Source: Candidatus Nanoarchaeia archaeon (GTDB lineage: Archaea; Nanobdellota; Nanobdellia; Pacearchaeales; GW2011-AR1). Taken from it: a stretch of DNA of 64,000 nucleotides. This document shows positions 2,608-56,694 of this stretch, piece by piece. The DNA lies in the NCBI GenBank assembly GCA_028718805.1, contig JAQUKY010000001.1, positions 16,384 through 80,383 on the forward strand, in the 5' to 3' direction. The notes under the pieces were generated by a model. That model saw only the letters and a list, made by a program, of their open reading frames with translations. It was not told the origin of the DNA and did no database searches. The position numbers were made by a program, and so were the translations under genes. Each line of letters starts with the position of its first letter. Position 1 is the first letter of the stretch.

Positions 2608-4029
2608 ATGATAAAGAAGAAATTTTATGTTACAACTGCAATAGATTATGTTAATGCAAAACCGCATTGCGGACATGCATTTGAGAAAACTTTAGCTGAT
2701 GCTATAGCAAGATGGAATAGACTTAATGGAAAAGATGTTTTTTTCTTAACTGGTGTTGATGAGAATGCACAGAAAAATGTTCAAGCTGCTGAGAAAGCAG
2801 GAATTAATGTGAAAGAGTTTGTCGATAAAAATACTGGTTTTTTCTTAGATTTATGCAAAAAATTGAATATAAGCTATGACGATTTTATTAGAACAAGTGC
2901 AAAAGATCATGCAGTTATTGTTCAAAAGATAGTTAAGAAGATAATAGAAAAAGGAGATATTTATTTAGGGAAATATGAAGGTTACTATTGCACTGGGTGT
3001 GAGGAGTATAAGACTGAAAAAGATTTAGTTGACGGAAAATGTCCTGAGCATAATAAAGAACCAGAATTCAGAAAAGAAGAGGCATATTTTTTTAAGTTAA
3101 GTAAATATCAGGATAAACTTCTTAAGATAATTCCAAAATATGTAATCCCAGAACAAAGAAAAAATGAAATAATAAAAAGGGTTGAGGAAGGATTAACTGA
3201 TCTTTGTGTTAGCAGAAGAAATGTAGAATGGGGGATTGATTTCCCAAATGATAAAAATTTTAAAATTTATGTTTGGGTTGACGCTTTGATAAATTATATT
3301 TCTGGCTTAAAAAATAAGGAAAAAAAATACTGGCCTGCTGATGTTCATGTTATTGGGAAGGGGATTAATTGGTTTCACTCAGTTATATGGCCCGCATTAT
3401 TATTATCTGCAGGTTATGAATTGCCAAAAACTCTTTTAGTTCACGGTTATTTAAATCTTGGTGGGAAAAAAATAAGCAAAAGTCTTGGGAATGTAATTGA
3501 CCCTTTAGGACTTTTAGGAAAATATGATTCAGATTCAGTAAGATACTCTTTATTGAAATGTTCTGTGTTTGAAGATTCTGATTATTCTGAAGAAATTTTA
3601 ATCAGCAGGAATAACAATGAACTGGCAAACAAATTAGGAAACTTAGTTTCAAGAGTTGAAGCATTGGCTGAGAAGTATGGAATTGAAAAAACTGAGAATA
3701 AGCTAATTTCAAAATTAAAATTAAAGGAAATTGAAAAATATGTTAATAATTATGAATTTGACAAGGCATTAAATGAGATTTTTGCCTTTATTGATGAATG
3801 CAATCTGTATGTTCAGGATAAAAAGCCCTGGGAGACTCATGATAAGAAAGTTTTGTATGAATTAGCTGATAGCATCAAGGCAACTGCAATCTTGCTTTAC
3901 CCATTTATGCCAAGCACAAGCGGGAAAATTGCAGAGCAATTTGGTTTTAAGATTGATTATAAAGAGATAAGCAAGCCTTTGAAAGTAAGTAAGATAAAGA
4001 AGGGTGAGATACTTTTTAAGAAGATGTAA
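2608..4029 (+). CDS. metG: methionyl-tRNA synthetase, core enzyme without C-terminal tRNA-binding domain
   Basis: Class I HIGH-type motif (AKPHCGHAFE), KMSKS motif (KISKSLGN) and a CxxC...CPxH zinc knuckle (CTGCEEY...KCPEH). 473 aa. Confidence 0.9.
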   Translation: MIKKKFYVTTAIDYVNAKPHCGHAFEKTLADAIARWNRLNGKDVFFLTGVDENAQKNVQAAEKAGINVKEFVDKNTGFFLDLCKKLNISYDDFIRTSAKDHAVIVQKIVKKIIEKGDIYLGKYEGYYCTGCEEYKTEKDLVDGKCPEHNKEPEFRKEEAYFFKLSKYQDKLLKIIPKYVIPEQRKNEIIKRVEEGLTDLCVSRRNVEWGIDFPNDKNFKIYVWVDALINYISGLKNKEKKYWPADVHVIGKGINWFHSVIWPALLLSAGYELPKTLLVHGYLNLGGKKISKSLGNVIDPLGLLGKYDSDSVRYSLLKCSVFEDSDYSEEILISRNNNELANKLGNLVSRVEALAEKYGIEKTENKLISKLKLKEIEKYVNNYEFDKALNEIFAFIDECNLYVQDKKPWETHDKKVLYELADSIKATAILLYPFMPSTSGKIAEQFGFKIDYKEISKPLKVSKIKKGEILFKKM

Positions 4030-4038
4030 ACCCAAACC

Positions 4039-4998
4039 TCACAAAGGCAAATAATTTAATTTGAGTAACTGGCTGTTTATGACTAATTCATATGAATCAA
4101 TTATATTCCCAAACTTTGATTTCATCTCAGACAAAAAAGAGTTCAGATCATTAATATCTGTGATTGCTACATTGATTTCATAGTCAAAAGAACCAATTTT
4201 TTTTGTAGTGTATATGACATTTTTTTTGTTTGCACACCAACAAATTAAATTATCTTCTTCCTTCAGGGTAGAATTTCTTATTTTTAACATTATGACATAA
4301 TGAAAATAGCCAATCTTGTTCATGTCAGCAATTACTCTGAATGAGCTCACTATTTTTTGTGTCAGATCTTTTACTCTGTGTTTTACCACATCTATTGTAT
4401 AACCTGTTTTTTCAGCCAGTTCTATTAAGGAGATATTTGCTTCCTGAGATAATACTCTAAGTATTTTTTTGTCTTTTTCATCAAGTTTAATTTCTTTATG
4501 ATCTTCTCCATATTTATCAAATTTAACTATTTCCTGTTTTTCTCCAAGAAGCAGTTTGTGCAGCTTAAATATTTTAGAAGAGACTACAATACTTACGAGG
4601 TAGTCATGCAAGATATCCCTGAATTTTGTTTTAACCTCACTTAAAAAAGAGTCTAATTCCCTGATGTTCTGAGATGCAATAACAAATGCATAATCAAATG
4701 AACCTTCTGTTTTAATGAAATTAATCACTTTTTTCTCACTTTTTATAAATTCAATAAACTCTTTTTCTCTTGCTGGAGTCATGGATTTCATCTTGCAATA
4801 AATCTTATGGTTCTTATAGCCAAGTTTTCCTAAGTTGACTGAGCAAATGTAATTAGTTATTATTTTTTCTTTTTCAAGTTTTTTTATCCTGTAGTCCAGC
4901 ACATTTCTTCCTATCCTGAGTTTTTTTGCCATTTTACTTAAAGGAGTCCTGCAGTTAATATCCAGTTCACACAGTATTTTTTTATCTATTAGGTCCAT
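4039..4998 (-). CDS. tandem (two-unit) Lrp/AsnC-fold protein, paralog 1
   Basis: Two AsnC-type HTH segments (LIDKKILCELDINCRTPLSKMAKKLRIGRNVLDYRIKKLEKEKII; LDEKDKKILRVLSQEANISLIELAEKTGYTIDVVKHRVKDL). Each is followed by an effector-type domain (EGSFDY.., IGSFDY..). Divergent from the 5092 operon. Confidence 0.8.
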   Translation of the reverse strand: MDLIDKKILCELDINCRTPLSKMAKKLRIGRNVLDYRIKKLEKEKIITNYICSVNLGKLGYKNHKIYCKMKSMTPAREKEFIEFIKSEKKVINFIKTEGSFDYAFVIASQNIRELDSFLSEVKTKFRDILHDYLVSIVVSSKIFKLHKLLLGEKQEIVKFDKYGEDHKEIKLDEKDKKILRVLSQEANISLIELAEKTGYTIDVVKHRVKDLTQKIVSSFRVIADMNKIGYFHYVIMLKIRNSTLKEEDNLICWCANKKNVIYTTKKIGSFDYEINVAITDINDLNSFLSEMKSKFGNIIDSYELVINSQLLKLNYLPL

Positions 4999-5091
4999 GT
5001 TATTAATAATAGGTATAAAGTATATAAATATTACCTTTTTTTAATAATTTTCTCTCACAGATTTTATATCTTATTGTATCCTGTAATTATT

Positions 5092-6264
5092 ATGGTAAGA
5101 GAAAAAAGCGCAGTTTATCCGTTATCAGCAGACCCAATACATAACGGGCACATATATACCCTAGCTGTAGCAGCAAACAGCGGCTTATTTGACAAAGTAA
5201 TTGTTGCTGTTGGAAATGACTGCAATAAAAATTATCTCTTTGACTTAGATGAAAGATTATTTTTAGCAAAAAAAGCAGTTTATTCTTCTGGATTTGAAAA
5301 AAACAAAGTAAGTGTAGAATCTTTTTATGGACTTTTAAGGAATTATGCAAGAGAGCAGGGAGCAAAATTTATAGTCAGAGGATGCAGAAACTCTAAAGAT
5401 TGGGAATATGAAAAAATATTGGGTGAATTTAATGGAGAATATGGATTACAGACTTTGATTTTTCCTGCTTCAAAAGAATTTGAGAATCTTAGTTCGACTT
5501 ATGTTAAATCCATAGCTGCGGAAGGGGGATTTGTTCATAATTTAGTTCATCCTTCAGTAAAACAAGCGCTTGAAGAAAGATTAAGAGAAGTTAGTCTAAT
5601 CGGAGTAACCGGCAATATGGGTGCTGGTAAAACTACTTTTTGTGAAAAATTAGTAGAATATTCTCAATTAAACGGAGGAAATTTGAGCCATATTGATTTT
5701 GATAAGCTAGTTCATTCATTATATTTTGGAGATTCGTCATTAAGTTATGAAGTTAGAAAGAATATAAGAGCGAGTTTTGGGGAAGATGTTTTCAATAGTT
5801 CTGGATTAGACAGAAGAAAGCTTGCTGAAATAGTTTTTGGAGATAGTGATAAGAGAGAAGAACTTTCAAGAATACTTATGGTTCCATCAATGATAAAATT
5901 TGAAGAAGAATTAAGACAAAGAAAAGGAATTGTCCTTGTTGATGCTGCATATTTTACTGAATATAACTTGCTTCCTTTGGTTAATTATAATGTAATTCTT
6001 GTGAGCTGCGATGAAAATGAAAGATTTAGGAGAGTTTTCAGAAGAGATGGAATAAATCGTGAAGAAATAGAAGCAAAAACAAAAGCTCAGCATAGTGAGG
6101 ACTTAAAAAGAAAAATAATAAGGGAAGCCCAGGATAAGTATAATCATGGTTTTTTCCATGAAATTGATTCTACAAATGGCATGAGATTAGATGAAATAAT
6201 GGAAAAAATTGAGTCTTATTTTCCTTTATTAAAATCAGGAGTCAGGGAAAATGCAATTGTCTGA
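5092..6264 (+). CDS. bifunctional phosphopantetheine adenylyltransferase (bacterial CoaD type) / dephospho-CoA kinase (CoaE type) fusion
   Basis: The N-terminal half has AVYPLSADPIHNGHIY (HxGH nucleotidyltransferase motif), FIVRGCRNSKDWEYE and SSTYVKSIAAEGG, as in bacterial CoaD. The C-terminal half has the CoaE-like P-loop IGVTGNMGAGKTT. The track start at 5074 is TTG, so I use ATG 5092 in the same frame. Confidence 0.8.
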   Translation: MVREKSAVYPLSADPIHNGHIYTLAVAANSGLFDKVIVAVGNDCNKNYLFDLDERLFLAKKAVYSSGFEKNKVSVESFYGLLRNYAREQGAKFIVRGCRNSKDWEYEKILGEFNGEYGLQTLIFPASKEFENLSSTYVKSIAAEGGFVHNLVHPSVKQALEERLREVSLIGVTGNMGAGKTTFCEKLVEYSQLNGGNLSHIDFDKLVHSLYFGDSSLSYEVRKNIRASFGEDVFNSSGLDRRKLAEIVFGDSDKREELSRILMVPSMIKFEEELRQRKGIVLVDAAYFTEYNLLPLVNYNVILVSCDENERFRRVFRRDGINREEIEAKTKAQHSEDLKRKIIREAQDKYNHGFFHEIDSTNGMRLDEIMEKIESYFPLLKSGVRENAIV

Positions 6265-6979
6265 TTTTATTTTTCGCCCACCAACTTTAAAGATGTGGAT
6301 AAAATATGGGAAGATATACGGAGAATTAGGTTCTAAATGGGCAGAGCTAATGAGAGAACTAAAAATTGATATGAGTTATGATGTTTATGGTACAAGCAAT
6401 CCCAAAGGCGAAACAGTGTTTTTAGAACTTTGCAGGAAATATTCTGAAAGTCACAGATATTATCATAATCCAAAACATCTTTTGGAATGTCTCAGAGAGT
6501 TTAATGAAGCTAGGGGTTTAGCAGAATTTCCTTTATCAGTTTCTTCAGCATTGTGGTTCCATGATGTTGTTTATGACACAAAAGCGGAAGATAATGAAGA
6601 AAAAAGTGAACAATATGCAAGGAAAAAACTTCAAGCATTAAAATTGCCTGATTCTTTTATTCAGAGAGTTGGCAATCTTGTTTTAATCACTAAACATTCT
6701 GATAAACCAAAAAACACTGATGAAAAACTTGTTTTAGATATAGATTTGTCTATCCTTGGAAAATCTGAAGAAGTTTTTAATGAATATGAAAAAAATATCA
6801 GGCAGGAGTATTCCTGGGTGGATGAAGAAGAGTTTAGAAAAGCAAGAAGCAGGATATTAGAGTCTTTTTTAAGCAGAGATTCAATATATCAAACTGATTT
6901 TTTCAGAGATAAGTATGAAGTCCAGGCAAGAAAAAATCTGGAAAGGTCTATAAACATATTAACTAATCCTGTTCCATAG
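6251..6979 (+). CDS. HD-superfamily metal-dependent phosphohydrolase (paralog of 55007-55603)
   Basis: YHNPKHLLECL ... LWFHDVVYDTKAEDNEEKSEQYARKKL ... VLDIDLSILG gives the H..H / HD / D pattern. Overlaps the CoaD-CoaE stop by 14 nt. An alternative ATG lies at 6293. Confidence 0.6.
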   Translation: MQLSDFIFRPPTLKMWIKYGKIYGELGSKWAELMRELKIDMSYDVYGTSNPKGETVFLELCRKYSESHRYYHNPKHLLECLREFNEARGLAEFPLSVSSALWFHDVVYDTKAEDNEEKSEQYARKKLQALKLPDSFIQRVGNLVLITKHSDKPKNTDEKLVLDIDLSILGKSEEVFNEYEKNIRQEYSWVDEEEFRKARSRILESFLSRDSIYQTDFFRDKYEVQARKNLERSINILTNPVP

Positions 6980-7062
6980 GACCCTTTATTCATATTATAT
7001 TAGGCAACCGATAAGTTTAAATTTCTATTAAAGAGGGTATATTATTATAAAAATATCATATC

Positions 7063-8562
7063 ATGGAATCTGAGAAAATGGGTTGCAATGAACTGGAAAA
7101 AATTGGTTATAATGGAATAAACCAGTCAATAGAACCTGAAGGTAACTCAAAGATTATAATTGAAAAGGATTTTGATGTTTCAAAAGTAGACTCTGCATTT
7201 AAGGATTTTTTTAAGGGAATTTCTCCTAAAGATGAGGATTCAAGATTGTTCTATTTTACAGAGCCTCATGTTGGCTCTAAGTCAAGGATGGGATTGTTTG
7301 GGGACTTTGCCCCTTCAGTTGTGTTTGCAGCTAATAGGTTTAATAAACTTCACCTTCCTGTAAGGGAAAAATATCTAAGGGAATTTGGATACGGCAAATT
7401 GTCTCATCTTTATTGTACTCTAGATAAGTCTGTAATGTTTGGTTTTCAGAATAAGTATATGGCCAGGAGCAAGATCCATAATCTTAATTCTGTTGCATCA
7501 ATTTTTCACAGACCTGGTTTGAAGATAGATGAGGAAAGACTCAAAGGCAAAGATATTTCTGATGATAAGGTTATAAAAGTATTGTTTGAAATAAAGAAAA
7601 ACGCAACTAAACTTTTTGGTGAGGTGAAATGTGAGGCTTTAGGCTATTCTACAATCAAACAATCAGAGCATAACTTCAGCTATCCTTCGCTTCTTGAAAA
7701 GATTGTTGGAGCAGATAATCTGATAAAAATCTTATTATATGGCTCAAGTGCAAAAGGACATGGGAATGACTTTGATAATCTTGGAGTTTTGCAGACAATA
7801 CCTCCTGATTTTTATGAAAAAATAAGGGGAACAAAACCTAATGAGAATGGAAAAGAAGTAGGGGTTATATTTATCCCAGAGGATATTCTTGAAAATTTTC
7901 TTTATGTAAATGTAAGCAATTCTTTACTCAGGCAAAGCAGCAAGTCTTTAAAGGGAGAGTTTGAGGTACCAATAGAATCTCCGAGATACCAGATATTCAA
8001 GGAGGCATATCACGCTGGAGTTGGCTCTGCAAAACTGCTTTCTGGGATGAATCTTGTTTATAGAAAGCCTGAATTGTTTTTTGACAAGCCAGGATTGTTT
8101 GATTATTTTATGAAACTGAACAGGTTTACACTGCAGGGGCTTTCCCAGAATGAAAAGTATGTTTCATTAAGCAAGGAAGAAACCCTGGAGAAACTTAAAA
8201 AAGGATTTGATTTTGAAATTCCAAAGTTTAAAGCAGATGTCAGCTATCTGCAGGAATGTTTTTTAAAAGCCAATAAGGCAAGCATTGAAATTGCAAGCAA
8301 ATTATATAACCCAAGACTGGCAATGGAAGGAAATGAGTTTTTAGCTGAATTGCAGCAGCAGTTTTCAAGAAAAATATTCAAGGCAGATTATCAGGGTCTT
8401 GACCTGTATGTTTTTGGCATGAGAGAGACTATGAGTTCAGGGGATATTGTTCCTGTAAGGATTCTTGATAAAAAGGAAAGAGATTATTCCTCCAAAAGAG
8501 AAGAGCTGAATTACAGGGGAATAACAAACAAAAAAAGAGTGTTAATTGGAAAAAGAGTTTAG
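7063..8562 (+). CDS. large protein with Pol-beta-type nucleotidyltransferase core
   Basis: LLYGSSAKGHGNDFDNL (G-S ... D-x-D minimal NTase signature) lies mid-protein. The flanking ~200-aa regions are unassigned. Confidence 0.5.
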   Translation: MESEKMGCNELEKIGYNGINQSIEPEGNSKIIIEKDFDVSKVDSAFKDFFKGISPKDEDSRLFYFTEPHVGSKSRMGLFGDFAPSVVFAANRFNKLHLPVREKYLREFGYGKLSHLYCTLDKSVMFGFQNKYMARSKIHNLNSVASIFHRPGLKIDEERLKGKDISDDKVIKVLFEIKKNATKLFGEVKCEALGYSTIKQSEHNFSYPSLLEKIVGADNLIKILLYGSSAKGHGNDFDNLGVLQTIPPDFYEKIRGTKPNENGKEVGVIFIPEDILENFLYVNVSNSLLRQSSKSLKGEFEVPIESPRYQIFKEAYHAGVGSAKLLSGMNLVYRKPELFFDKPGLFDYFMKLNRFTLQGLSQNEKYVSLSKEETLEKLKKGFDFEIPKFKADVSYLQECFLKANKASIEIASKLYNPRLAMEGNEFLAELQQQFSRKIFKADYQGLDLYVFGMRETMSSGDIVPVRILDKKERDYSSKREELNYRGITNKKRVLIGKRV

Positions 8563-8744
8563 GATTTTTTAAACTTATAATTGATGTCAGTAATGTGTAA
8601 GACTTTGGGATTTGCAAATGAGCAGATTAAGATTGAAATTCATAGAGTTTTTTTGTTTTAAATATTAAAGATATTATGAAAATTTTAACTAAATTTATTC
8701 TCTTATACAATAATCCTTTTAAATGATGTCTCAATTAATATCAA

Positions 8745-9818
8745 ATGGAATTTTGGCAGAGAGTTCACTGGTTTTTTACATCTAAATGCAATGAAAGATG
8801 CAAATTTTGTTTTAAACCTGATTTTGATGAGGGCTCTGCAGATAATGCAAAAACTTTAACAAATATATTAACTAAAAATGATGTTAAAGAAGTTGTTTTT
8901 ACAGGCGGGGAACCTCTTATTTCAAAAAATTTAGATAAGAGTTTAGAGATATTGCGCGATAATAATATTAATACAAGTATTCATACAAATGCAATTTTGC
9001 TGACTTCTGATAGGGTTAGAGATTTAACTTCTTTAGCAGACGAAATAGCAATACCATTAGATAGTATGAATAGAAAAACTCAGGAATATTTAAGAAATGA
9101 AGATTGCCTCAAACAAATTAAAAAAGTTTTTGGGCAATTACAAGATGCTGATGTTAGAATAGGGATACATACTGTTGCTACAGCAATAAACATGAAAGGT
9201 GTTCCTAAAATTTATGATTTTCTCTGCAAAGGAAGATTTGATTATTGGAAGATATATGAGTTTAATCCAAATTTAGTTAAGGATAGGACAAAAAGTGTAA
9301 AAAGATTTTATGAAGTAGAGAAACTTAGTGGAAGACATGCAACAGAGACTGATGGAGGGGTTAGATGTTTGTTTGCTGATTTTTTGTTAATGGAAGAACA
9401 GATGTCCAGATATAAGGACAAAAGAGTAAAATTTGTTGGTTTCAGTGATTATGACAGAGCCCCTTATTTTTTCCTGGATTCTAAAGGAAATGCTTATATG
9501 GCTACCTGGTTTTCCCAGCACAGGAAACCTATTGGAAATTTGCTGAATGAAGGATTCATAAAAGTCAGAGATAGAGCCATTAAAAAATATTCAGAAGGAC
9601 CATTATATGATGAAGATGCTTTTATTGAAACAGAACAAAGCCAGCCTCTTTGGGTCAGGGGTGCCTGGGCTGGAAATTATTTTGATGAAGAATTTGATGA
9701 TCTTGACCCAAAATACCATAATAAATTCAGGCACCTTTCAGAATTATACTTAGACAGGATAAAAAAGCAAGGAGAAGCTCCAAAAGATGCTAAACTTAAT
9801 TATACTATAATTTGTTGA
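8745..9818 (+). CDS. radical SAM enzyme, viperin-like N-terminal signature, no SPASM tail
   Basis: CNERCKFC (CxxxCxxC) and the FTGGEPLI motif. The blocks VHWFFTSKCNERCKFCF, EIAIPLDS, YWKIYEF and YFFLDSKGNAY line up by eye with viperin NYHFTRQCNYKCGFCF, ILAISCDS, RWKVFQ and SYLILDEYMRF. Confidence 0.75.
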   Translation: MEFWQRVHWFFTSKCNERCKFCFKPDFDEGSADNAKTLTNILTKNDVKEVVFTGGEPLISKNLDKSLEILRDNNINTSIHTNAILLTSDRVRDLTSLADEIAIPLDSMNRKTQEYLRNEDCLKQIKKVFGQLQDADVRIGIHTVATAINMKGVPKIYDFLCKGRFDYWKIYEFNPNLVKDRTKSVKRFYEVEKLSGRHATETDGGVRCLFADFLLMEEQMSRYKDKRVKFVGFSDYDRAPYFFLDSKGNAYMATWFSQHRKPIGNLLNEGFIKVRDRAIKKYSEGPLYDEDAFIETEQSQPLWVRGAWAGNYFDEEFDDLDPKYHNKFRHLSELYLDRIKKQGEAPKDAKLNYTIIC

Positions 9819-23333: not shown

Positions 23334-23909
23334 ATGAATAACCTATTAAAACTGATTTACACTTTAGGGAAAAATCTGAAAGAAGAAATAACTTTAAGAG
23401 AACTTTCTGTTCAGGCAAAAGTGGCTTACACAACTGCTTATAGAGAAGTTATGTTTAATAAAGATATTTTTATAATAAACAAAAAAGCAAATATTAATTT
23501 ATGTTCTCTTAATTTAAAAGATAGTATAACAAAAAACTACCTTATTATTGCAGAAAGAGAAATTGCAAAAGAATTTCTAAAAAATAACAAGATTTTTTCT
23601 TTAATAAAAAAAGAACTTGTTGAAGGGGATTATTCATTAGTATTATTTGGTTCAAGAGCAGAAGGAAAAGAAAGGGAAAAAAGTGATATTGATTTATGCA
23701 TAATAAACAAAGAGGGAAAGAAAGTCATTAAATTGGACAAATTTGAATCTTTATTTGATTTAGAGATTAATCCAATTTATTTAAGCAGGCAGGAATTTCA
23801 GGCAATGATAAAGGAATCTGAAGAAAATCTTGCAAAACAAATAATAAAAAAGCATATTGTCTTGTATGGAGAAGAATATTTTTGGAGGCTGATCTTAAAT
23901 GATATTTAA
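23334..23909 (+). CDS. minimal nucleotidyltransferase (MNT-type) with N-terminal winged-helix-like segment
   Basis: LVLFGSRAEGKEREKSDIDLCII (G-S-x9-D-x-D). Confidence 0.7.
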   Translation: MNNLLKLIYTLGKNLKEEITLRELSVQAKVAYTTAYREVMFNKDIFIINKKANINLCSLNLKDSITKNYLIIAEREIAKEFLKNNKIFSLIKKELVEGDYSLVLFGSRAEGKEREKSDIDLCIINKEGKKVIKLDKFESLFDLEINPIYLSRQEFQAMIKESEENLAKQIIKKHIVLYGEEYFWRLILNDI

Positions 23910-24423
23910 CACTAAGTTTTATAAAAGAGAGTTTGAAAGACTTCTTAAAACAAAAAAAAGGAAGAAGTTTTATATTAAAAATAGCACCTCTCTTTTCAAG
24001 ATTAAAAAGTTTATAAAAAAAGGAGTAGATAGTTTTGAGCTTGCAGGATTTATAAAAAAATCTTCTCAAAATGCAAAAGACTACTGGACAATTGTAATTT
24101 GTTATTATTCTATGCTTTATCTGGCAAAAGCATTAATTTTAACTAAAGATTATGAAACAGATGACCATTATTCTACTCAAATTGCTCTCGGGCATCTCTT
24201 TCTTGAAGATAAGCTAAATCAGCAGGATATTGAAGTATTAAATAAAGCATATCAAACATTTGAGCAGGAATACATAGATTATTTTCATGATGCAAGAAAA
24301 GAAAGTAAGATAAGCAGATATTCCACTACAACAATATATTCTCAAAGAAGAGTTGAAGAAATTTATCATAATTCAAAAAAATTCATAGCTAAATTATTGG
24401 TTTTATTAGAAAAATGGCAGTAG
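23899..24423 (+). CDS. HEPN domain protein (partner of the MNT)
   Basis: Overlaps the MNT gene by 11 nt. All-helical, with an R-x5-H candidate motif (RRVEEIYH) near the C-terminus. Confidence 0.55.
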   Translation: MIFNTKFYKREFERLLKTKKRKKFYIKNSTSLFKIKKFIKKGVDSFELAGFIKKSSQNAKDYWTIVICYYSMLYLAKALILTKDYETDDHYSTQIALGHLFLEDKLNQQDIEVLNKAYQTFEQEYIDYFHDARKESKISRYSTTTIYSQRRVEEIYHNSKKFIAKLLVLLEKWQ

Positions 24424-25385
24424 GAAAGATTAAATTAGACCTAAAAGATAAGAAACTTTTAACTTTACTTGATGAAAATTCAAGATACAGCAATAGCCAG
24501 ATTGCTAAAAAAGTTGGATTAAGCAAACCTGCTGTTGAGTACAGAATTAAAAGATTTGAAAAAAATAATGTAATCTTTAATTTTTATGCTGTTGTTGATT
24601 TCACAAAATTAGGATATTCCCAGTATAAGTTATACATTAAATTTCAGAATACAAATTTGGAAGATGAACAGAAAATAATAGATTATTGGATTAGGACAAA
24701 AAATGTTATGTGGGTTGCTGAAATTAGAGGAAGATGGGATTTAACAGTTTCTATGCTTGCTAAATCAAATTTTGAGTTTGGAAAGATTTTATACGGTTTT
24801 ATGAACAAATTTTCAAAATTTGTCCTTGAAAAAGATGTTCTTTTAACAGAATACTCTCCTATTTATTCAAGAGAGTATTTAACAGAGACAAAGCCAAAGG
24901 AATTTGTTTATGGAATTCCTGAAAAAATTTATGAACTTGATGAAGCAGACATAAAGATATTGCAGGAACTTTCAACAAATGCTAGGATTAATTTTGTTGA
25001 CTTGGCTGAAAAAACAAAATTAACAAGAGATATTATAAATTATAGGATAAAAAAATTAACAGAAAAGGGGATTGTTATTCAATATCGCTGTTATCTTAAT
25101 CTGCAAAATCTGGGGATTAATCATTATAAAGTAATTTTCAGGACAAAAAATCTTGATGAAACAGCTGAAAACAAGATTAAACAATATACGAAGAAGCATA
25201 AAAAAGCAACACAATTCTTAAAATTAATTGGAAGCTGGGATTTGGAGATAGAGTTTGAAACTGAAAATGAAGATGAATTGTACAGAATCTTAACTGAAAT
25301 AAGAAAAGAATTTTCAGATATAATAAGAGATTTTGATATTTTAAGAATAACAAAAAATTATAAATTTAGTTTTTTTCCGTTTTAA
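24414..25385 (+). CDS. tandem (two-unit) Lrp/AsnC-fold protein, paralog 2
   Basis: LDLKDKKLLTLLDENSRYSNSQIAKKVGLSKPAVEYRIKRFEKNNVI and LDEADIKILQELSTNARINFVDLAEKTKLTRDIINYRIKKLTEKGIV, each followed by a G-x-W-D-L type effector domain. Overlaps the HEPN gene by 10 nt. Confidence 0.8.
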   Translation: MAVGKIKLDLKDKKLLTLLDENSRYSNSQIAKKVGLSKPAVEYRIKRFEKNNVIFNFYAVVDFTKLGYSQYKLYIKFQNTNLEDEQKIIDYWIRTKNVMWVAEIRGRWDLTVSMLAKSNFEFGKILYGFMNKFSKFVLEKDVLLTEYSPIYSREYLTETKPKEFVYGIPEKIYELDEADIKILQELSTNARINFVDLAEKTKLTRDIINYRIKKLTEKGIVIQYRCYLNLQNLGINHYKVIFRTKNLDETAENKIKQYTKKHKKATQFLKLIGSWDLEIEFETENEDELYRILTEIRKEFSDIIRDFDILRITKNYKFSFFPF

Positions 25386-29365: not shown

Positions 29366-29409
29366 AAGATAGCAGTATTTATAAATAAATAATGTTTTGT
29401 AGGGTTTAT

Positions 29410-30324
29410 ATGATTAGCGCAAATAAGAAGGAACGAATAGCCTATGAAGTTATAAAGACACTTAAATCTAGATTTGAGTCTTTTCCAGAAGATTCGAAAA
29501 ATAATAGAAATGCTCCGTTTCATGAAGCATTTCTTAATGCATTTTCTAATAAATTAGAAGGCAACATTAAAGATGCGCCTTATTTAATAAGTCTTAGTAG
29601 TTGGTTGCATGGGCTCAATACTACGCTAGGCCAATCCTTTTTTGAGAATATCGCACATATCTTATCTGGTGGAATAAAAAAGGAATTCACAAAGAAGAAA
29701 AGAAGTTCTTTGTGTATTACGACCATACAACAAAGTGAAATTGCATCAATAATTACTAGTCTTAAAAGCCAGTCAAGAAAACCAAACCTAGTTGGAGAGA
29801 ATAAATTAATCTTTCAATTAGATAAATCAACTATAGTTGAAGCCATGGATTTTACAGCAGATAATTATATTGAAACGGATACAATTATTGAAGCTATTGA
29901 ACTAAAATCTGTTAAGCCTAATTCGGGGGAGATGAGAGGAGAAAAACAAAAAATATTAATCGCCAAGGCCGCACTTAAGAAGAAGTATCCTTCAAAAGAT
30001 ATTAAATTTTATATAGGATTTCCTTTTGATCCAACTTCCTCTACACTTGCGGGTACCGACAAAAATAGGTTTATGAGTTCTATAATTGAATTTAATAAAT
30101 TTTTTAGTTCTGATGAAGTATTGATAGGAGATGAATTGTGGGATCAGCTTTCTGGGGATGAAAAGACTATGCAGCAAATATTGGATATAATAAATAAAAT
30201 TGCTACTAAAGATTTTATTGATAATTTTAATTTTCTTAAAAATCCTGAAAATCAAAAAAGTAATCCAAAGAAATATGATAAACTCATAAAAGAATGGAAT
30301 CTGAGCAGTAAATTGCTAACTTAA
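29410..30324 (+). CDS. putative type II restriction endonuclease
   Basis: Tail-to-tail with the methyltransferase, 61-nt gap. Candidate PD-(D/E)xK core (MDFTADNYIE...IEAIELKSVK). Start set at ATG 29410 (MISANKK). Confidence 0.5.
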   Translation: MISANKKERIAYEVIKTLKSRFESFPEDSKNNRNAPFHEAFLNAFSNKLEGNIKDAPYLISLSSWLHGLNTTLGQSFFENIAHILSGGIKKEFTKKKRSSLCITTIQQSEIASIITSLKSQSRKPNLVGENKLIFQLDKSTIVEAMDFTADNYIETDTIIEAIELKSVKPNSGEMRGEKQKILIAKAALKKKYPSKDIKFYIGFPFDPTSSTLAGTDKNRFMSSIIEFNKFFSSDEVLIGDELWDQLSGDEKTMQQILDIINKIATKDFIDNFNFLKNPENQKSNPKKYDKLIKEWNLSSKLLT

Positions 30325-30385
30325 TCTTATCAAAATATCATTCATTTGTTTCTCTTTGAAAACTAGTTTTATAATAAAATGCTTA

Positions 30386-47300: not shown

Positions 47301-47819
47301 ATGCCTTATTATAATGTAAGCGATGATAAAGAAGGGGAATGTGAGGTTTGCAAAACAACTTACATAAAAGAGGTTTGGGATTCGTTTGGGAGCAACCCTA
47401 ATGATTGGGGCTACCAATTTGAAAATTGTCCGACTTGTTTATATAACCCCCAATTAAAGAGGGATATTTCTGAACTTATTGGGATTGGGGTTCGTGCCGA
47501 TATTGTTGATGGAAAAATCAAATATAATTGCAGAGAATTATCTGAGATGGTTAAAGATGAGGTGATCAGGCATATTCAGAATCTTGAAAATAAAAATGAA
47601 AGAAGATGGCATGAGTTACTATACCATTCTTCTTTACAACTTCCTGAGATGTTGAATAAAAATACGAGGGGAACTTTTAGTTCTTTCGGAAATCTTGAAT
47701 TTAATACGCAAGAGCTTTCTGATTTAGTTAATCAGAAAATTATAGAACTTTGGGGTAGATATGGAGCAAGTGAAGAAAAATGGTTGAAACAGGAGGTCAA
47801 AAGTGGATATATAAAATGA
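47301..47819 (+). CDS. hypothetical zinc-ribbon protein (172 aa)
   Basis: CEVCKTT ... CPTCLYN at the N-terminus. Its stop overlaps the next ATG (ATGA). Confidence 0.45.
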   Translation: MPYYNVSDDKEGECEVCKTTYIKEVWDSFGSNPNDWGYQFENCPTCLYNPQLKRDISELIGIGVRADIVDGKIKYNCRELSEMVKDEVIRHIQNLENKNERRWHELLYHSSLQLPEMLNKNTRGTFSSFGNLEFNTQELSDLVNQKIIELWGRYGASEEKWLKQEVKSGYIK

Positions 47820-48325
47820 AGGTTGTAATAACAGGAGGCCCATGTTCGGGAAAAACAACCCTTATTAATGAGTTAAAGAAAAGAGGATATTATTGTTTAG
47901 ATGAGGTTGCAAGAGAGATTTTAACTGAGAATAAGAATATAAGTTTTCTGGAATTGCAGGAAGAAGTTTTTAAAAAACAAATTCAAAAAGAGAATAATAT
48001 TAATGGAGAACTTGTTTTTTTAGACAGAGGATTGGTTGATAATTATGTTTATTATTCTCAGAGCAATAACTTCCCCGATTATATAAAAAATTTTGAATAT
48101 AAGGGGAGATATGACAAGATTCTCTTCCTTGAGAGATTCCAATTTGAAAATGATGGATTAAGAATAGAAAAAGATGAAAAGGAAGCCGGAGAGATTCATG
48201 ATAAGATAAGGCACACTTATTCTAATTTTGGTTATAATCTCTTGGAAGTTCCAAGAATGGATGTTGGTAAGAGGGCGGATTTTATCTTGTTTCATATTAA
48301 AGACTTGAAAGGGGGTGGGAATTAG
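47816..48325 (+). CDS. P-loop ATPase/kinase (AAA_28 / NadR-kinase-like, predicted ATPase family)
   Basis: MKVVITGGPCSGKTTLINEL, FLDRGLVDNYVY and a C-terminal GY-x-LLEVP pattern. Start set at ATG 47816. Confidence 0.6.
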   Translation: MKVVITGGPCSGKTTLINELKKRGYYCLDEVAREILTENKNISFLELQEEVFKKQIQKENNINGELVFLDRGLVDNYVYYSQSNNFPDYIKNFEYKGRYDKILFLERFQFENDGLRIEKDEKEAGEIHDKIRHTYSNFGYNLLEVPRMDVGKRADFILFHIKDLKGGGN

Positions 48326-48326
48326 A

Positions 48327-51913: not shown

Positions 51914-52366
51914 TTATCCTGCGAGGATTTTAACAGCAGCACATATTTTTTCTTTATCAGACATGTTGTACTTATATTCATACACCTCTTTAAGAATTTC
52001 TTTGGATTCTTCTGGTTTTATGCCGTGTGTTGCTGATTCAAATCGTTTTTTTAGCTGTTCTACTTCCAAACCATGAAAAAGATAAGAAGTTTTCTCTTCA
52101 CCTTCTTTTAATAAATCTTCAATATCATTTCCAAGAGGCCTAATATATGCATAAACTTTTTTTGAATCAGTAAAAGGCAAGGATTTTTTTTGAGAATCTC
52201 TTTTTACACTTAAATCTATAACTGAGCAGTCTTCTATATCCAAAGCAATTACTTCTAAGTTCCCTATTCCATCTAATTCTGGCTCTGTTTTTAAAATTGG
52301 TGTCTCTTGTTTATCTTCTGTTTTAGCATATTTTTGTTCTATCATCTTTAAAATTTTACATATCAA
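51914..52366 (-). CDS. hypothetical protein (150 aa), last gene of the HD / radical SAM / kinase operon
   Basis: Overlaps the kinase gene by 11 nt. No motif recognised. Confidence 0.5.
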   Translation of the reverse strand: MICKILKMIEQKYAKTEDKQETPILKTEPELDGIGNLEVIALDIEDCSVIDLSVKRDSQKKSLPFTDSKKVYAYIRPLGNDIEDLLKEGEEKTSYLFHGLEVEQLKKRFESATHGIKPEESKEILKEVYEYKYNMSDKEKICAAVKILAG

Positions 52367-52952
52367 GAGTTTTTAAGTTTTTATAGACAAAAATTTCTAG
52401 CGCTTTAGATGATTGTTCTGCTGTTTTATTTGTAGTATCTATCTTTGTTTTATAGCCATTGAATTTTGTGTATAAATCTAAATATTTATTTTCTCTTGAA
52501 ATTATCAGATGAGGATTTTTTGAGAGGATTTTGTGATATTTATTATCTGAACTTTTACTAAGTCTTTTGATTATTTCTTCTAAAGATGCATGAAAGTATA
52601 CCAGTGCATCTGGTTTGATTATAAATGGTTTGAAAATTTTTGCTATTAATTTATTATACTCTCTTTCTGCAGTCGGGTAGGATAAAATGGAAAGGTCATA
52701 TCTGTCCTGCAATATTATCTTATTTTGCTTTAAATTTGGTTTTATTATCCTGTATTGAATATACATCAACTCCAGCAAAAATAACAAAGTTGATGGAAAT
52801 TTTCTTGCTAATTTGCCTATAAAAGTATCTGAACCAATTCCTTTGCTGTATATATAGTCATTATTCTCTTTGTTATTGCTTAATAGCTGTTTAATTGTTG
52901 TTGTTTTACCTGTTCCATCTAATCCTTCGCATATAATTAAAAGTCCTTTCAT
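52356..52952 (-). CDS. thymidylate kinase-family P-loop protein
   Basis: LIICEGLDGTGKTTT (the EG-DG-GK-T motif of dTMP kinases) and QDRYDLSILSY (DRY..S..Y). Its ATG overlaps the upstream TGA (ATGA). Confidence 0.65.
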   Translation of the reverse strand: MKGLLIICEGLDGTGKTTTIKQLLSNNKENNDYIYSKGIGSDTFIGKLARKFPSTLLFLLELMYIQYRIIKPNLKQNKIILQDRYDLSILSYPTAEREYNKLIAKIFKPFIIKPDALVYFHASLEEIIKRLSKSSDNKYHKILSKNPHLIISRENKYLDLYTKFNGYKTKIDTTNKTAEQSSKALEIFVYKNLKTLDM

Positions 52953-53968
52953 TTTACATCCCCTAATTCAAATTTTCTTAGAGGGCATACAAAACCATAT
53001 TTTTTACAATCATAATTTTTTATATCAAATGCATTTTTAAAATTAACACAGTATCCTCCAAATCCTTTAAATAGTTGAGATAAATCTTTCCAGTATTTGT
53101 TCCATAATTCTGTATTATTCCAAATATCTTTGACAGAGCATTTGTGCAGGTTTGCAAGAGGTTTGTTATAAGAAGCTAAGATTGCGCATGGATATACATT
53201 TCCATCAGGCAAAATCTGAAGGTGACTTTTTTCTTTATTTGCAATGCATCCTAAATTAGGATTCCATTTTTCTTTTTCTATTAAAGGGAATTCAATAGAG
53301 ATTCTCATTCCTTTATTCTGATATTTTTTTAATTTTTCTCTGATAAATTTTAGCCATTTTAGTGGTTCAACAGCTAATTCTTTGCTTTTGTTACCTCTTC
53401 CTATTGGAGTAAAGTAATAGATTCCTTGTTCATCTGCTTTTAAATTCAAGGCTAACTCAGTTATGTTTGAAATATCTTCTAAATTACAAGAAAAAACAGT
53501 AGTGTTTATTTTAGTATAAAATCCTGTTTTTTTTGATTCTTTTATATTTTCTATTACTCTTTCAAAAGTTTCTTTATCTTTTCTTCTTATTTTATTATAA
53601 ATTTCTGCATTTGACCCATCTAAGCTAATTGCTATTGCATCTAAACCCAGCTCTTTAAATTTTCTTAATTTTTCTTTTGTAAGCAGTGAGCCATTGGTGA
53701 CCAGTTCAATCTTGTAATCTAATCTTTTCCCTAATTTGATGATTTCTTCAACATCATCTCTTACTAATGGTTCGCCGCCGGTTATATCAAATCTTTTTCC
53801 TCCAAGTTCTTTTGTGTCTGTTAAAATTTTTTCTAATTCCTTTAGATTAAGTTCTGGCATTTTTGTTATCCCAGAATCAAAAGCGCAATGAGTGCACCTA
53901 AAATTACATCTGTTAGTTATGTTTAAGTCTAGTTTTGGTAGTGTTCTATTTTCCATTTTTTTCTCCAT
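52949..53968 (-). CDS. radical SAM enzyme (second of a pair), C-terminal Cys-containing auxiliary region
   Basis: LNITNRCNFRCTHC (CxxxCxxC), ITGGEPLV and C-terminal cysteines (LGCIANKE, VYPCAIL, GGYCVNF, YDCKKYGFVCP). Start set at the internal ATG 53968; the track ORF extends to 54010. Confidence 0.7.
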   Translation of the reverse strand: MEKKMENRTLPKLDLNITNRCNFRCTHCAFDSGITKMPELNLKELEKILTDTKELGGKRFDITGGEPLVRDDVEEIIKLGKRLDYKIELVTNGSLLTKEKLRKFKELGLDAIAISLDGSNAEIYNKIRRKDKETFERVIENIKESKKTGFYTKINTTVFSCNLEDISNITELALNLKADEQGIYYFTPIGRGNKSKELAVEPLKWLKFIREKLKKYQNKGMRISIEFPLIEKEKWNPNLGCIANKEKSHLQILPDGNVYPCAILASYNKPLANLHKCSVKDIWNNTELWNKYWKDLSQLFKGFGGYCVNFKNAFDIKNYDCKKYGFVCPLRKFELGDVK

Positions 53969-55013
53969 TAACGGGTATGTATAATGTGCAAAGATACAGC
54001 TCATGCACATTCCAGTTCTTTTCGAGGTCTTTTTTTACTTCGGGTTTTTTTGTTTTTGGATTAAGCCAGCATAAAGGGTCTGGGCCATTAAAATGTCCAT
54101 AAGCCAGATAAGAAGCTCCTGCATCTCCTCCCTTGCAATGATAGTATGCATTGCAGGATTTACATTTTTCATTTGGGTGTCTGTCTCTTATTCTTTTAAA
54201 AATATCAGAATTCATTATTTTTTCTACAGACTGATATTTTATGTTTCCTCCGGATTCTGATAGAAAAACTGAAGGACTTACTTCTCCATTAGGCTGTATT
54301 CTAAATGCAGTGAAACCTGAAGGATCCCCTGGAGAATAATAAGTTCCTCCAAAAGCTGCTCTGAAAACAGGCTCTGGTGTCAAAATTCCTTTTCTTTTAA
54401 ACTGGTTTAAATAAGTATATGATTTTTTGAGGTCTTTTTTTGAAAGAGCTAAGATTTTCTCATTTTCTATTCCTCTGCCATTTGCCCTGAATCTATTGAG
54501 TCTCCATGAGTCAACATTTAATTTATCAGCTAAATTATACAATTTTTGTAATTCTTGTTCAGAACAATTAAGTTTTGTCAAGCAAGTTACCATTTCATTG
54601 TCAATTCCTTTTTTCACTAAAACTTCCAGAGCATGAATTGCTTTGTTGAAAGTTCCGTTTCTTCCTCTAAACTGGTCATGTTTTTCTGCATCTGCAAAAT
54701 CAATGCTAACTCCAATATCATGAAAAAGGTTTAGATGGTCTTTTATTCTGTCAAAAGTAGTTCCATTTGTAGTATAAGATATTGCTATTCCTTTATTTTT
54801 AATATATCTGCATAAGTCAATGAAGTCTGGCCTTAGAGCACATTCTCCTCCTCCAAAATTAATTGCAATTACTCCTGATTTTTTTAGTTTATCCACCACC
54901 TTAAAACATTCTTTAAGGTTTAATTCATCAGGGCTTCTTTTTCCAGAAGCATTGTAACAATGAGCACAATTGAGATTGCATGCATTTGTTAAAGACCAGC
55001 CTGCGACTAACAT
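53946..55013 (-). CDS. radical SAM enzyme with SPASM-like C-terminal domain (NirJ/AhbC/AhbD/PqqE-like class)
   Basis: WSLTNACNLNCAHC (CxxxCxxC), NFGGGECAL and C-terminal CKSCNAYYHCKGGDAGASYL...GPDPLCW. Its ATG overlaps the HD gene stop by 7 nt. Confidence 0.75.
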   Translation of the reverse strand: MLVAGWSLTNACNLNCAHCYNASGKRSPDELNLKECFKVVDKLKKSGVIAINFGGGECALRPDFIDLCRYIKNKGIAISYTTNGTTFDRIKDHLNLFHDIGVSIDFADAEKHDQFRGRNGTFNKAIHALEVLVKKGIDNEMVTCLTKLNCSEQELQKLYNLADKLNVDSWRLNRFRANGRGIENEKILALSKKDLKKSYTYLNQFKRKGILTPEPVFRAAFGGTYYSPGDPSGFTAFRIQPNGEVSPSVFLSESGGNIKYQSVEKIMNSDIFKRIRDRHPNEKCKSCNAYYHCKGGDAGASYLAYGHFNGPDPLCWLNPKTKKPEVKKDLEKNWNVHELYLCTLYIPVNGEKNGK

Positions 55014-55603
55014 CTTTGAACCTCCTCAATTTTTCTGATTAATTTCTGAATATTTTCTTTTTCCTTTTTTTCTCTTAATCTTTTTGCAGGTTCTGTGTAA
55101 TATTTGTGATTAGAAATAAACTGGAATGTTTTTTCATACCAGCTTGCATTATCAGGCAAGCCTAGTTCATTTCTGAAGTTATTGCCTTTTTCAAAGAAAT
55201 CTTCTCTTCCAAAATTGTCCAAATCTGCATCACAGATAATTTTTTCAAGCAGGTTCAATGGTCTTTGAGGAAGTTTTGTAGCCAGAATCATCCCTTTAAT
55301 CTTGTTTATCTGTTCTTTAGAGTAATCTAATCCAGAGAGATATGTTCTTGCAAATTCCATACTTTTTTCTTCATTATCCTGAGCAAAAGGAACATAGATA
55401 ATATCATGAAGAAGCACTGCACTTTCCAGTAAAAACTGGTCTTCTTCATTTAAGTTATTTAAAGGTCCATATTTTTTTGCAACAGAATAAACATCCATGA
55501 CATGTTCAAAATTATGATATGGAAGATTAGGCATTGTCCTTTTGGCAACTTCCTTAACTTGAATCAGCTTAGCCTGATTATCTGTGTATGTTTTCTTTTC
55601 CAT
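55007..55603 (-). CDS. HD-superfamily metal-dependent phosphohydrolase (paralog of 6251-6979)
   Basis: PYHNFEHVMDV ... AVLLHDIIYVPFAQDNEEKSMEFARTYL ... ICDADLDNFG aligns block for block with the 6251 protein. Confidence 0.65.
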   Translation of the reverse strand: MEKKTYTDNQAKLIQVKEVAKRTMPNLPYHNFEHVMDVYSVAKKYGPLNNLNEEDQFLLESAVLLHDIIYVPFAQDNEEKSMEFARTYLSGLDYSKEQINKIKGMILATKLPQRPLNLLEKIICDADLDNFGREDFFEKGNNFRNELGLPDNASWYEKTFQFISNHKYYTEPAKRLREKKEKENIQKLIRKIEEVQRC

Positions 55604-55695
55604 ACTTATTATAAGATATGGTTATATAAGAAATATTTTACCTAAAAATACGCATTTTCCGTAATATTTATAAATAATGTTAGTTTTATCCTAAT

Positions 55696-56694
55696 ATGAG
55701 ATGCCTTCAGCAAAAACAAGATACTAAAGAAATAAAACTTGACGTGAAAGATATAAAAATACTTGCTTTACTGAGCAATAATGCCCGAATTCCTTTGACT
55801 CAGCTTTCTAAGAAAGTGGCTTTATCAAGAGATGCAGTTGATTACAGAATTAAAAATTATGAAAAAAGTGGATTAATACAAGGATACAGAACAATAATTA
55901 ATGTGGCAGAATTTGGGTATAATAATTATCATTTATTTATCAAATTAAATAATCCTTCAGAAGAAATTGAAAAAAGGATTTTAAGCAGATTAATAAAACA
56001 TGATTTTATAAGAGCAATACTAAAATTCAGTGGAGGATTTGATTTTGAAATTGCGATAATTGCAAAAGATTTAGAAGAGCTGGATAAAAGAATAGAAAAT
56101 ATAACAAGAGATTGTTCTGGTTTTGTTCAGGATTATGAAATTCTTACATTTAGCAAGTTTTATGCTTCAAGAACTCTGCCAAAAAGTTTTTCAAATATTA
56201 TAGAAGACTTGGAGATTAAAAAAAAGCAGTATAAAATAGATAAAAAAGACATTGAAATTCTAAAGTTAATAAGTGAAAATGCCTTGCTTCCATTATATGA
56301 GATAGGAAATAAGATTAAGCTTAGTGCAGATGCAATATCTTACAGGATAAAGAAGATGAGGGAATCTAAAATTATTAACAAATTTATTCCCGTAGTAGAT
56401 TATAGCTTATTAGGATATAATGTTTTTGTTGTTTTATTTGATATTAATTCATTAAATGAAGAAAGAGGAAAAAAGCTTGGTGAGTTTTTTATTCATGATA
56501 ATAATACCATTTGGGCAGTTAAAACAATTGGCAAGTTTAATGTTCTTGTTTATTTTCTTGTTAAAAACATTGATGATTTGCAGAAAAGCATATCAAAACT
56601 AAGAAGCATGTTCCCTGGTGAAGTAAGGAATCATAATGTGCTGATAGCTTATGAAGAATACAAATTTACTTATTTTCCTCCAGGTTTATTCTGA
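55696..56694 (+). CDS. tandem (two-unit) Lrp/AsnC-fold protein, paralog 3
   Basis: LDVKDIKILALLSNNARIPLTQLSKKVALSRDAVDYRIKNYEKSGLI and IDKKDIEILKLISENALLPLYEIGNKIKLSADAISYRIKKMRESKII, each followed by an effector-type domain (SGGFDFEIAI, IGKFNVLVYF). Divergent from the HD / radical SAM operon. Confidence 0.8.
   Translation: MRCLQQKQDTKEIKLDVKDIKILALLSNNARIPLTQLSKKVALSRDAVDYRIKNYEKSGLIQGYRTIINVAEFGYNNYHLFIKLNNPSEEIEKRILSRLIKHDFIRAILKFSGGFDFEIAIIAKDLEELDKRIENITRDCSGFVQDYEILTFSKFYASRTLPKSFSNIIEDLEIKKKQYKIDKKDIEILKLISENALLPLYEIGNKIKLSADAISYRIKKMRESKIINKFIPVVDYSLLGYNVFVVLFDINSLNEERGKKLGEFFIHDNNTIWAVKTIGKFNVLVYFLVKNIDDLQKSISKLRSMFPGEVRNHNVLIAYEEYKFTYFPPGLF

Follow-up and report, generated by a model that had tools for sequence, protein, structure and literature searches.

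A conserved unit of three genes is found in a 64-kb stretch of DNA (64,000 nucleotides, hereafter the window; 31% G+C) from a metagenome-assembled genome (MAG) of Candidatus Nanoarchaeia, a DPANN archaeon. The three genes encode a tandem Lrp/AsnC protein (Lrp1), a CoaD–CoaE fusion (CoaDE) and a hydrolase of the HD superfamily (HD1). The reading that we prefer, with modest confidence, is that this triad forms an Lrp-controlled cassette for the salvage of coenzyme A (CoA), in which the HD hydrolase is coupled to phosphopantetheine adenylyltransferase (PPAT). The two genes that follow, a nucleotidyltransferase-like (NTase-like) gene and a radical SAM gene (rSAM1), are excluded from the cassette, and a second locus of the window (locus 2), with a paralogous HD gene (HD2), is a separate system. 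The proposal draws on the persistence of the triad amid changed flanks, the fusions of CoaD with HD proteins, the precedents of YqeK and of the mycoplasmas, the reported absence of the archaeal dephospho-CoA kinase (DPCK) and the presence of AccA. Terminal CoA salvage and the pairing of an adenylyltransferase with an HD protein are both known kinds of system, and here they would be combined.

The conserved triad

Three other DPANN genomes contain the same triad (L007/8, L009/10 and L017). In each of them, the ortholog of Lrp1 is divergent from the CoaD–CoaE fusion, and the fusion and the HD gene overlap at the end of the former. The genes that flank the triad are entirely different in each genome. 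Lrp1 is the best conserved member, with orthologs that are 74–85% identical and always divergent from CoaDE–HD1, and the identities range from 52 to 74% for the CoaDE orthologs and from 48 to 56% for the HD1 homologs within the triads. A regulator more conserved than the enzymes presumed to be under its control (48–74%) is unusual, at least when its role is purely local.

This unit is smaller than the one drawn in an earlier note on this DNA, which had joined Lrp1, CoaDE, HD1, the NTase-like gene and rSAM1 at locus 1. The five open reading frames (ORFs) are all present as described there (Table 1), including the overlap of 14 nt between HD1 and the preceding CoaD–CoaE gene. The observation of the earlier note is therefore confirmed, while its interpretation is only partly supported: CoaDE and HD1 are conserved neighbors, and the NTase-like and radical SAM genes are unlinked elsewhere.

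The CoaD–CoaE fusion and the proposed salvage of CoA

Domains were called with the curated models of Pfam and NCBIfam, and the scores were compared with the cutoffs of the models. Both parts of the fusion pass the equivalog cutoffs: the CoaD part (PPAT, residues 13–169) scores 114.6 bits with TIGR01510 (cutoff 103.3) and the CoaE part (DPCK) 72.0 bits with TIGR00152 (cutoff 65.55). The protein also matches both PF01467 and PF01121. The (T/H)xGH nucleotidyltransferase motif of CoaD is present near the N-terminus as PIHNGH, and the P-loop of CoaE reads GNMGAGKT in the translation. The ORF opens at position 5074, and the ATG at 5092 corresponds to the start of the orthologs and to that of the NCBI gene call (390 aa). 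A fusion of PPAT and DPCK also constitutes the CoA synthase of eukaryotes.

A precedent for the proposed role is found in parasites with reduced genomes, in which PPAT and DPCK alone are commonly kept. Most mycoplasmas have only these two enzymes, for the salvage of 4′-phosphopantetheine; in a further likeness to locus 1, some of these species have a HAD phosphatase fused to DPCK (PMC8721197). Nanoarchaeota, along with some other DPANN, have been reported to be without the archaeal DPCK (PMC6650551). A host-dependent DPANN archaeon of this kind would turn scavenged 4′-phosphopantetheine into CoA by means of CoaD–CoaE. As in the mycoplasmas, only the last two steps of the pathway would be involved, here as judged from the 64-kb window, and an uptake of 4′-phosphopantetheine from the host is proposed. 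The differences are also clear. PPAT and DPCK are fused at locus 1, they are coupled to an HD and not to a HAD hydrolase, and a putative dedicated regulator is paired with them; moreover, in contrast to both the mycoplasmas and the eukaryotic CoA synthase, the host is an archaeon that carries enzymes of bacterial type. The window also encodes a bacterial-type alpha subunit of the acetyl-CoA carboxylase carboxyltransferase, AccA (60273–61334; E 1e-129), which indicates that CoA thioesters (acetyl- or malonyl-CoA) are used in this DPANN archaeon.

HD1 and its proposed partnership with CoaD

HD1 matches no Pfam or NCBIfam model (the Pfam HD model matches HD2, not HD1), and yet its family is large. 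There are 1187 homologs, and the family, which comprises more than 1,000 protein clusters, is labeled by JGI as “predicted metal-dependent HD superfamily phosphohydrolase” and often mislabeled as “NMDAR2C subunit”. The metal-binding residues H72/H76, H104–D105 and D163/D165 do not vary across 75 sequences from the HD1 and HD2 subfamilies, and the HD1/HD2 family has in addition a signature of its own (YHNxxH / NEE.S / D.DL). The predicted model (pLDDT, the predicted local distance difference test, of 94) has the HD fold, with 2PQ7, cyclic-nucleotide phosphodiesterases and YpgQ crystallized with ADP as the closest structures. A single-sequence search of the PDB with HD1 returned nothing significant, and PADLOC gave no match for HD1 or HD2. 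The best profile and fold matches of the HD1/HD2 family are small HD hydrolases that share the H..HD..D site (3DJB, 3DTO, 2PQ7, YedJ 3GW7 of E. coli and YpgQ 5DQV/5DQW), but these are only remote matches (profile E 1e-7 to 5e-5; Foldseek E ~0.02) and the HD1/HD2 family is set apart by its signature.

The distant HD2-type domains of bacteria provide a further indication. They are found as C-terminal fusions to class III adenylate/guanylate cyclases (L107, L112, L116, L120, L124 and L168), some of which also carry PAS, GAF or Y_Y_Y sensor domains; one more is fused to the Pycsar effector transmembrane domain PycTM (L171) and another to a YitT membrane domain (L142). These architectures suggest a role of the distant domains in the turnover or sensing of cyclic nucleotides and, together with the neighbors of the HD fold, point to the chemistry of nucleotide phosphoesters.

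The proposed link between HD1 and CoA metabolism comes from its partners. Fusions of HD1-type proteins with CoaD exist in both orders (P0020, P0045, P0056, P0266 and L048), in a Micrarchaeote and in several metagenomic proteins, and in Kapaibacterium, in Myxococcales and in another bacterium (L023, L059 and L042) the HD gene and the 3′ end of coaD overlap. The CoaD partners in these fusions and overlaps score 116–177 bits with TIGR01510, above its cutoff, with the exception of P0266, which falls below it (94.7 bits). An arrangement of this kind has its closest precedent in YqeK, whose HD domain, fused to or clustered with NadD, hydrolyses the erroneous products of NadD and so serves as a proofreading activity (PMC9426524). 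The fusion is seen in mycoplasmas and the clustering in Firmicutes. What the two systems have in common is a small HD phosphohydrolase joined, by gene fusion or translational coupling, to an adenylyltransferase from one superfamily (PF01467); the HD1 type displays this trait with CoaD, including the overlap in the DPANN triads. On the other hand, HD1 comes from a different HD family, its partner is CoaD and not NadD, and in DPANN CoaE is also fused and a tandem Lrp attached.

By this precedent, HD1 would partner the PPAT step by cleaving a phosphoanhydride or phosphodiester bond in a nucleotide–pantetheine compound. Most likely, it would proofread or remove wrong products of PPAT, or surplus molecules of the dephospho-CoA or CoA type, as YqeK does for NadD. 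A variant of this proposal reverses the direction of the flow: HD1 would supply the PPAT domain by freeing 4′-phosphopantetheine from scavenged CoA, dephospho-CoA or holo-carrier proteins. Such a supply role, which we consider unlikely, suits a scavenging lifestyle, is compatible with the HD fold and the phosphodiesterase-like structural neighbors, and would explain the CoaD–HD fusions and overlaps equally well. AcpH, for instance, is an HD-family enzyme that releases 4′-phosphopantetheine from a holo-carrier protein. However, HD1 shows no similarity to any Pfam family at E ≤ 0.01, the AcpH family included, and most archaea, to our knowledge, lack acyl carrier protein. The same sequence data otherwise fit the supply and the proofreading variants alike.

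Lrp1 and the divergent region

Lrp1 resembles the feast/famine regulators of the Lrp/AsnC family in its domains. It contains two HTH_AsnC-type stretches and one match to AsnC_trans_reg (RAM; 33.6 bits, cutoff 25), and a second RAM is visible only through the alignment of the internal repeats. It also resembles them in its position: the gene is transcribed away from the operon that it likely controls, and the A/T-rich region between them is conserved. This region, between Lrp1 and CoaDE, is exactly 93 nt long in 4/4 genomes and has a mean pairwise identity of 71%, compared with 54% for shuffles (maximum 64.6%); this conservation exceeds that of the coding DNA of both CoaDE (67%) and HD1 (63%). 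Two outward-facing TATA-like boxes and a conserved core can be recognized in it. In the proposed mechanism, Lrp1 would bind the intergenic region and, acting on a small-ligand signal, determine how strongly the two transcripts are expressed.

The tandem proteins of the window depart from the typical members of the family in two respects: two complete Lrp units are joined in one chain, and at least three paralogs are found in 64 kb, with CoaDE–HD1, the HD2–radical SAM operon and an MNT/HEPN pair as their partners. The three share 26–30% identity. Lrp1 and Lrp2, the protein of locus 2, are 26% identical (E 2e-34), and their alignment of 115 bits compares with 129 and 145 bits for the other two pairs. 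The third tandem Lrp (24414–25385) overlaps the end of a gene pair on the same strand that encodes an MNT-type nucleotidyltransferase and a HEPN protein (23334–23909 and 23899–24423), which looks like a toxin–antitoxin-type pair with a tandem Lrp of its own. A further tandem Lrp, in L002, adjoins acetyltransferases.

Weighing the CoA-salvage proposal

Several points weigh against the reading of the triad as a regulated CoA-salvage cassette. The salvage of 4′-phosphopantetheine to CoA is proposed from the content of the 64-kb window, and both the control of the triad by Lrp1 through the 93-nt region and the putative co-transcription of CoaDE and HD1 are suggested by the arrangement of the genes. 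Most bacterial homologs of HD1 stand alone, with no dominant partner, and CoaD is adjacent or fused in only ~6% of the bacterial HD1 loci sampled. In a Nanoarchaeota MAG (L018, 2154–2720), the HD1 homolog is apparently disrupted, with a C-terminal ORF of 115 aa left, and stands alone with neither an Lrp nor a CoaDE partner. Membership of HD1 in the YqeK family itself (COG1713, hydrolases of Ap4A or with a proofreading role) was considered and rejected; the YqeK-family structure 2O08 is matched with only E 0.022 (17 bits), and there is no Pfam or NCBIfam match. A search of the literature on COG4339, the “NMDAR2C subunit” HD proteins and PPAT–HD fusions returned no papers.

Part of this evidence would be expected if HD1 had no CoA role at all, that is, if it were a general hydrolase of the nucleotide pool or of cyclic nucleotides that lies beside housekeeping coaD and coaE genes, with the Lrp as a global regulator placed there by chance. 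The stand-alone bacterial homologs, the cyclase fusions of the HD2 relatives and the conservation of Lrp1, unusually high for a local regulator, all fit this explanation. It does not account, however, for the CoaD fusions in both orders and the translational overlaps in phylogenetically distant lineages, nor for a triad that stays intact while all its flanks change and whose intergenic region is conserved and of fixed length. A Pfam scan of 137 same-strand ORFs flanking the HD1 homologs revealed no dominant partner, and CoaD was among the few recurrent ones. We regard a coincidental neighborhood of this kind as rather improbable, and retain CoA salvage as the preferred reading.

The NTase-like gene and rSAM1

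These two genes are neighbors with no relation to the triad. The NTase-like family is small, with only 28 homologs, mostly from DPANN, and in five independent contexts the gene occurs without CoaDE, HD or radical SAM genes. Its closest relative (68% identity) is located directly after the gene of the methionyl-tRNA synthetase (MetRS); in the window, MetRS (2608–4029) and the NTase-like gene are separated by exactly the triad. In the 176 loci first tabulated, no ORF near HD or NTase-like homologs had rSAM1 as its best match. As members of the unit proposed in the earlier note, both genes are missing from these 176 loci and from the other triad loci.

The gaps between the genes agree with this separation. 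An A/T-rich TATA-like box lies ~25–30 nt upstream of the ATG of both the NTase-like gene and rSAM1, and a terminator-like T7/T4 run follows the former, so that the run of plus-strand genes is predicted to consist of three independent transcription units and not one. The absence of linkage elsewhere and these promoter- and terminator-like gaps support the triad alone as the unit.

The NTase-like protein itself (499 aa) has a new architecture: its N-domain is helical, an NTase-like core (GS..DxD) and a second helical domain follow, and a beta-barrel forms the C-terminus. The core residues G227–S228..D236-x-D238 are invariant in the family, with a spacer of 7 residues as compared with the hG[GS]x9-13Dh[DE]h motif. 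No match was found in Pfam (including NTP_transf_2), NCBIfam or PADLOC, and searches of the PDB with the single sequence and with a family profile were both empty. The predicted model is of high confidence (pLDDT 90.8); its top Foldseek matches are NTases, partial and with E ≥ 0.045, plus the beta-barrel, and none is significant over the whole chain. The barrel resembles those of RumA, Rpb7, RPA and eIF1A and, on the basis of the model, may bind RNA. A gene of the Vut_1 family (putative vitamin uptake transporters) is found near the NTase-like gene of another locus (L178, 8305–8985).

rSAM1 has the PF04055 domain and a CNERCKFC motif but no SPASM domain, and its family comprises ~55 cluster representatives at E ≤ 1e-30. 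With the radical SAM proteins of locus 2, it shares 24% identity, in the generic core only.

The second locus

Locus 2 is a genuine conserved cassette, separate from locus 1 and not a copy of it. In the close relatives of HD2 (43–56% identity), the operon consists of HD2, rSAM3 and rSAM2, usually followed by a Tmk-like kinase, with Lrp2 in divergent orientation (L013/14/97, L098–L101 and L016); the kinase gene is found at the 3′ end in L013, L016 and L100. The Lrp2 orthologs are 40–61% identical and always divergent from HD2. The intergenic region between the two shows the same pattern in six genomes, TTTATAAAT..TT(A/C/T)CGGAAAA..CG.ATTTTT..TTCTTATA. In one genome (L015), only the Lrp2–HD2 pair is kept and the radical SAM genes are gone; a Vut_1 gene is found there after HD2 (6604–7954). 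Genes with Bro-N domains, which are typical of viruses and mobile elements, lie less than 2 kb from the triad in L007 (7835–8707) and from the HD2 operon in L013 (8897–9754). The neighbors of the locus-2 radical SAM proteins in the PDB (MoaA, GDGT-MAS, BlsE, PqqE and SkfB) are too generic for the assignment of a function. The locus probably makes or processes a nucleotide-derived metabolite.

The resemblance between the two loci had led the earlier note to the idea of a single module of tandem Lrp, HD, P-loop kinase, NTase and radical SAM genes, present twice by duplication or reuse. Much of the underlying observation holds. HD1 and HD2 are indeed paralogous (33% identity over 130 aa, E 3e-16), as are the Lrp proteins, and the same superfamilies are found at both loci. 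For each HD paralog there is a conserved module with a separate tandem-Lrp ortholog in divergent orientation at its head (Lrp1 in L007–L010 and L017; Lrp2 in L013–L016 and L097–L101), and both modules conserve a P-loop kinase among their genes. The pairing of both HD paralogs with a tandem Lrp, conserved in relatives, is thus the part of the idea that survives. The recurrence of the whole set, on the contrary, stands at the level of superfamilies only: the kinases belong to different families (CoaE at locus 1 and Tmk-like at locus 2), and rSAM1, without SPASM and with a match confined to the core, is unlike the radical SAM proteins of locus 2. A recurrence at this level is expected, since the families are abundant in the window, which contains three tandem Lrps, three radical SAM proteins and at least four genes of the P-loop kinase fold. 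In addition, neither rSAM1 nor the NTase-like gene occurs at any of the other triad or HD loci, and the latter has its five other contexts. A duplicated unit is also contradicted by the relationships of the proteins. HD1 is 42–50% identical to bacterial homologs and only 20–28% to the HD2 group, and among the three Lrps no two are further apart than Lrp1 and Lrp2. The one-module explanation is consequently largely refuted and we hold it to be very improbable; what the two loci share is only an anciently diverged pairing of an Lrp with an HD protein, the HDs being of one broad family.

Two other explanations were considered. According to the first, locus 2, and with it the scheme common to both loci, would be an alternative-heme (Ahb/NirJ-like) pathway, in which the tandem Lrp is a fused decarboxylase of the AhbA/B type and the radical SAM proteins are AhbC/AhbD-like. 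It originates in weak matches of Lrp1 and Lrp2 to the AhbA/AhbB models, and of rSAM2 and rSAM3 to the NirJ2 and AhbD models, but the scores are far below the curated cutoffs (32 bits vs 140 for AhbA, ~130 vs 500 for AhbD and ~150 vs 500 for NirJ2) and it was rejected on these grounds. Lrp2 fits genuine regulators far better (LysM, 91 bits), the divergent orientation and the conserved promoter region suit a regulator, and such a pathway leaves the HD and Tmk-like genes without a role. A heme pathway is accordingly hardly credible here.

According to the second, the genes would form a defense island, with a viperin-like radical SAM protein, nucleotide kinases, the NTase and the HD protein as parts of antiviral nucleotide-modifying systems. 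Among solved structures, those nearest to rSAM1 are viperins; the pVip models of PADLOC are matched by 3/3 radical SAM proteins and VakA by the Tmk-like kinase. Nonetheless, pVip was the only radical SAM family that PADLOC returned, so that any radical SAM protein is likely to match and the result is uninformative. With the viperin model NF038283, rSAM1 reaches 75.8 bits (cutoff 180) over the core only (residues 7–175), and the viperins of the PDB align only to residues 7–170. The viperin reading was rejected on this score below the curated cutoff and on the lack of a full-length match that takes in the C-terminal nucleotide-binding part. Furthermore, the radical SAM proteins of locus 2 are of the SPASM type, with a high conservation (up to 80%), a scan of viral contigs with rSAM1 found no relatives, and the HDs have no PADLOC match. 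A role in defense is thus highly unlikely.

Other features of the window

The features of the two loci are collected in Table 1. Elsewhere in the window, the archaeal release factor aRF1 is split by an intein that carries a LAGLIDADG homing endonuclease (26981–29365). A TdeIII-type restriction endonuclease lies beside a convergent N6/N4 DNA methylase, which together make up a type II restriction–modification system (29392–31987). An overlapping run of three genes, with two AAA_28-type P-loop kinase/ATPase genes around an unannotated gene of 342 aa, is found at 47780–49947.

Table 1. Positions of the features at the two loci of the window, and the evidence on which each assignment is based.
Feature	Coordinates	Strand	Evidence
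Lrp1, tandem (two-unit) Lrp/AsnC protein, putative local regulator of the triad	4039..4998	-	domain calls, orthologs
Divergent promoter/operator region Lrp1–CoaDE	4999..5091	.	fixed length, conservation
CoaD (PPAT)–CoaE (DPCK) bifunctional fusion, bacterial-type	5092..6264	+	TIGR01510, TIGR00152, PF01467, PF01121
HD1, metal-dependent HD phosphohydrolase, family uncharacterized	6251..6979	+	homologs, invariant residues, model
NTase-like 499-aa protein, rare family, not a module member	7063..8562	+	contexts elsewhere
rSAM1, radical SAM without SPASM, small distinct family, not a module member	8745..9818	+	PF04055 only
Tmk-like P-loop kinase	52356..52952	-	PF02223
rSAM2, radical SAM/SPASM	52949..54010	-	PF04055 + PF13186; orthologs 37–76% identical
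rSAM3, radical SAM/SPASM	53946..55013	-	PF04055 + PF13186; orthologs 48–80% identical
HD2, HD1 paralog in a separate subfamily	55007..55603	-	PF01966; 362 homologs; first gene of the operon
Divergent promoter region HD2–Lrp2	55604..55695	.	pattern conserved in six genomes
Lrp2, tandem Lrp/AsnC protein	55696..56694	+	two HTH_AsnC-type stretches

Implications

The pattern of the earlier note, attractive as it was, turns out to be mostly a coincidence, and the units that are truly conserved have now been delimited. For the Nanoarchaeia and Pacearchaeota, groups reported to be without the archaeal dephospho-CoA kinase, the triad offers a candidate route to CoA. A large orphan family of HD hydrolases gains a testable hypothesis of a role in CoA metabolism, which is backed by independent gene fusions, and the single-chain tandem Lrp family has apparently been reused for local switches in these reduced genomes. 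A second conserved operon of DPANN (HD2, two radical SAM/SPASM proteins and a Tmk-like kinase) is also brought to attention. A bolder extension, which we offer tentatively and consider possible rather than probable, is that the HD1 family is a new component of CoA metabolism, a hydrolase coupled to PPAT and active in proofreading or recycling compounds of pantetheine and a nucleotide, that some DPANN archaea obtained it from bacteria along with CoaD and CoaE, as a complete salvage cassette under Lrp control, and that HD2 plays the equivalent part in a second, DPANN-specific pathway. If this is true, the HD2 pathway, with its two radical SAM/SPASM proteins and its Tmk-like kinase, would make a nucleotide-derived metabolite.

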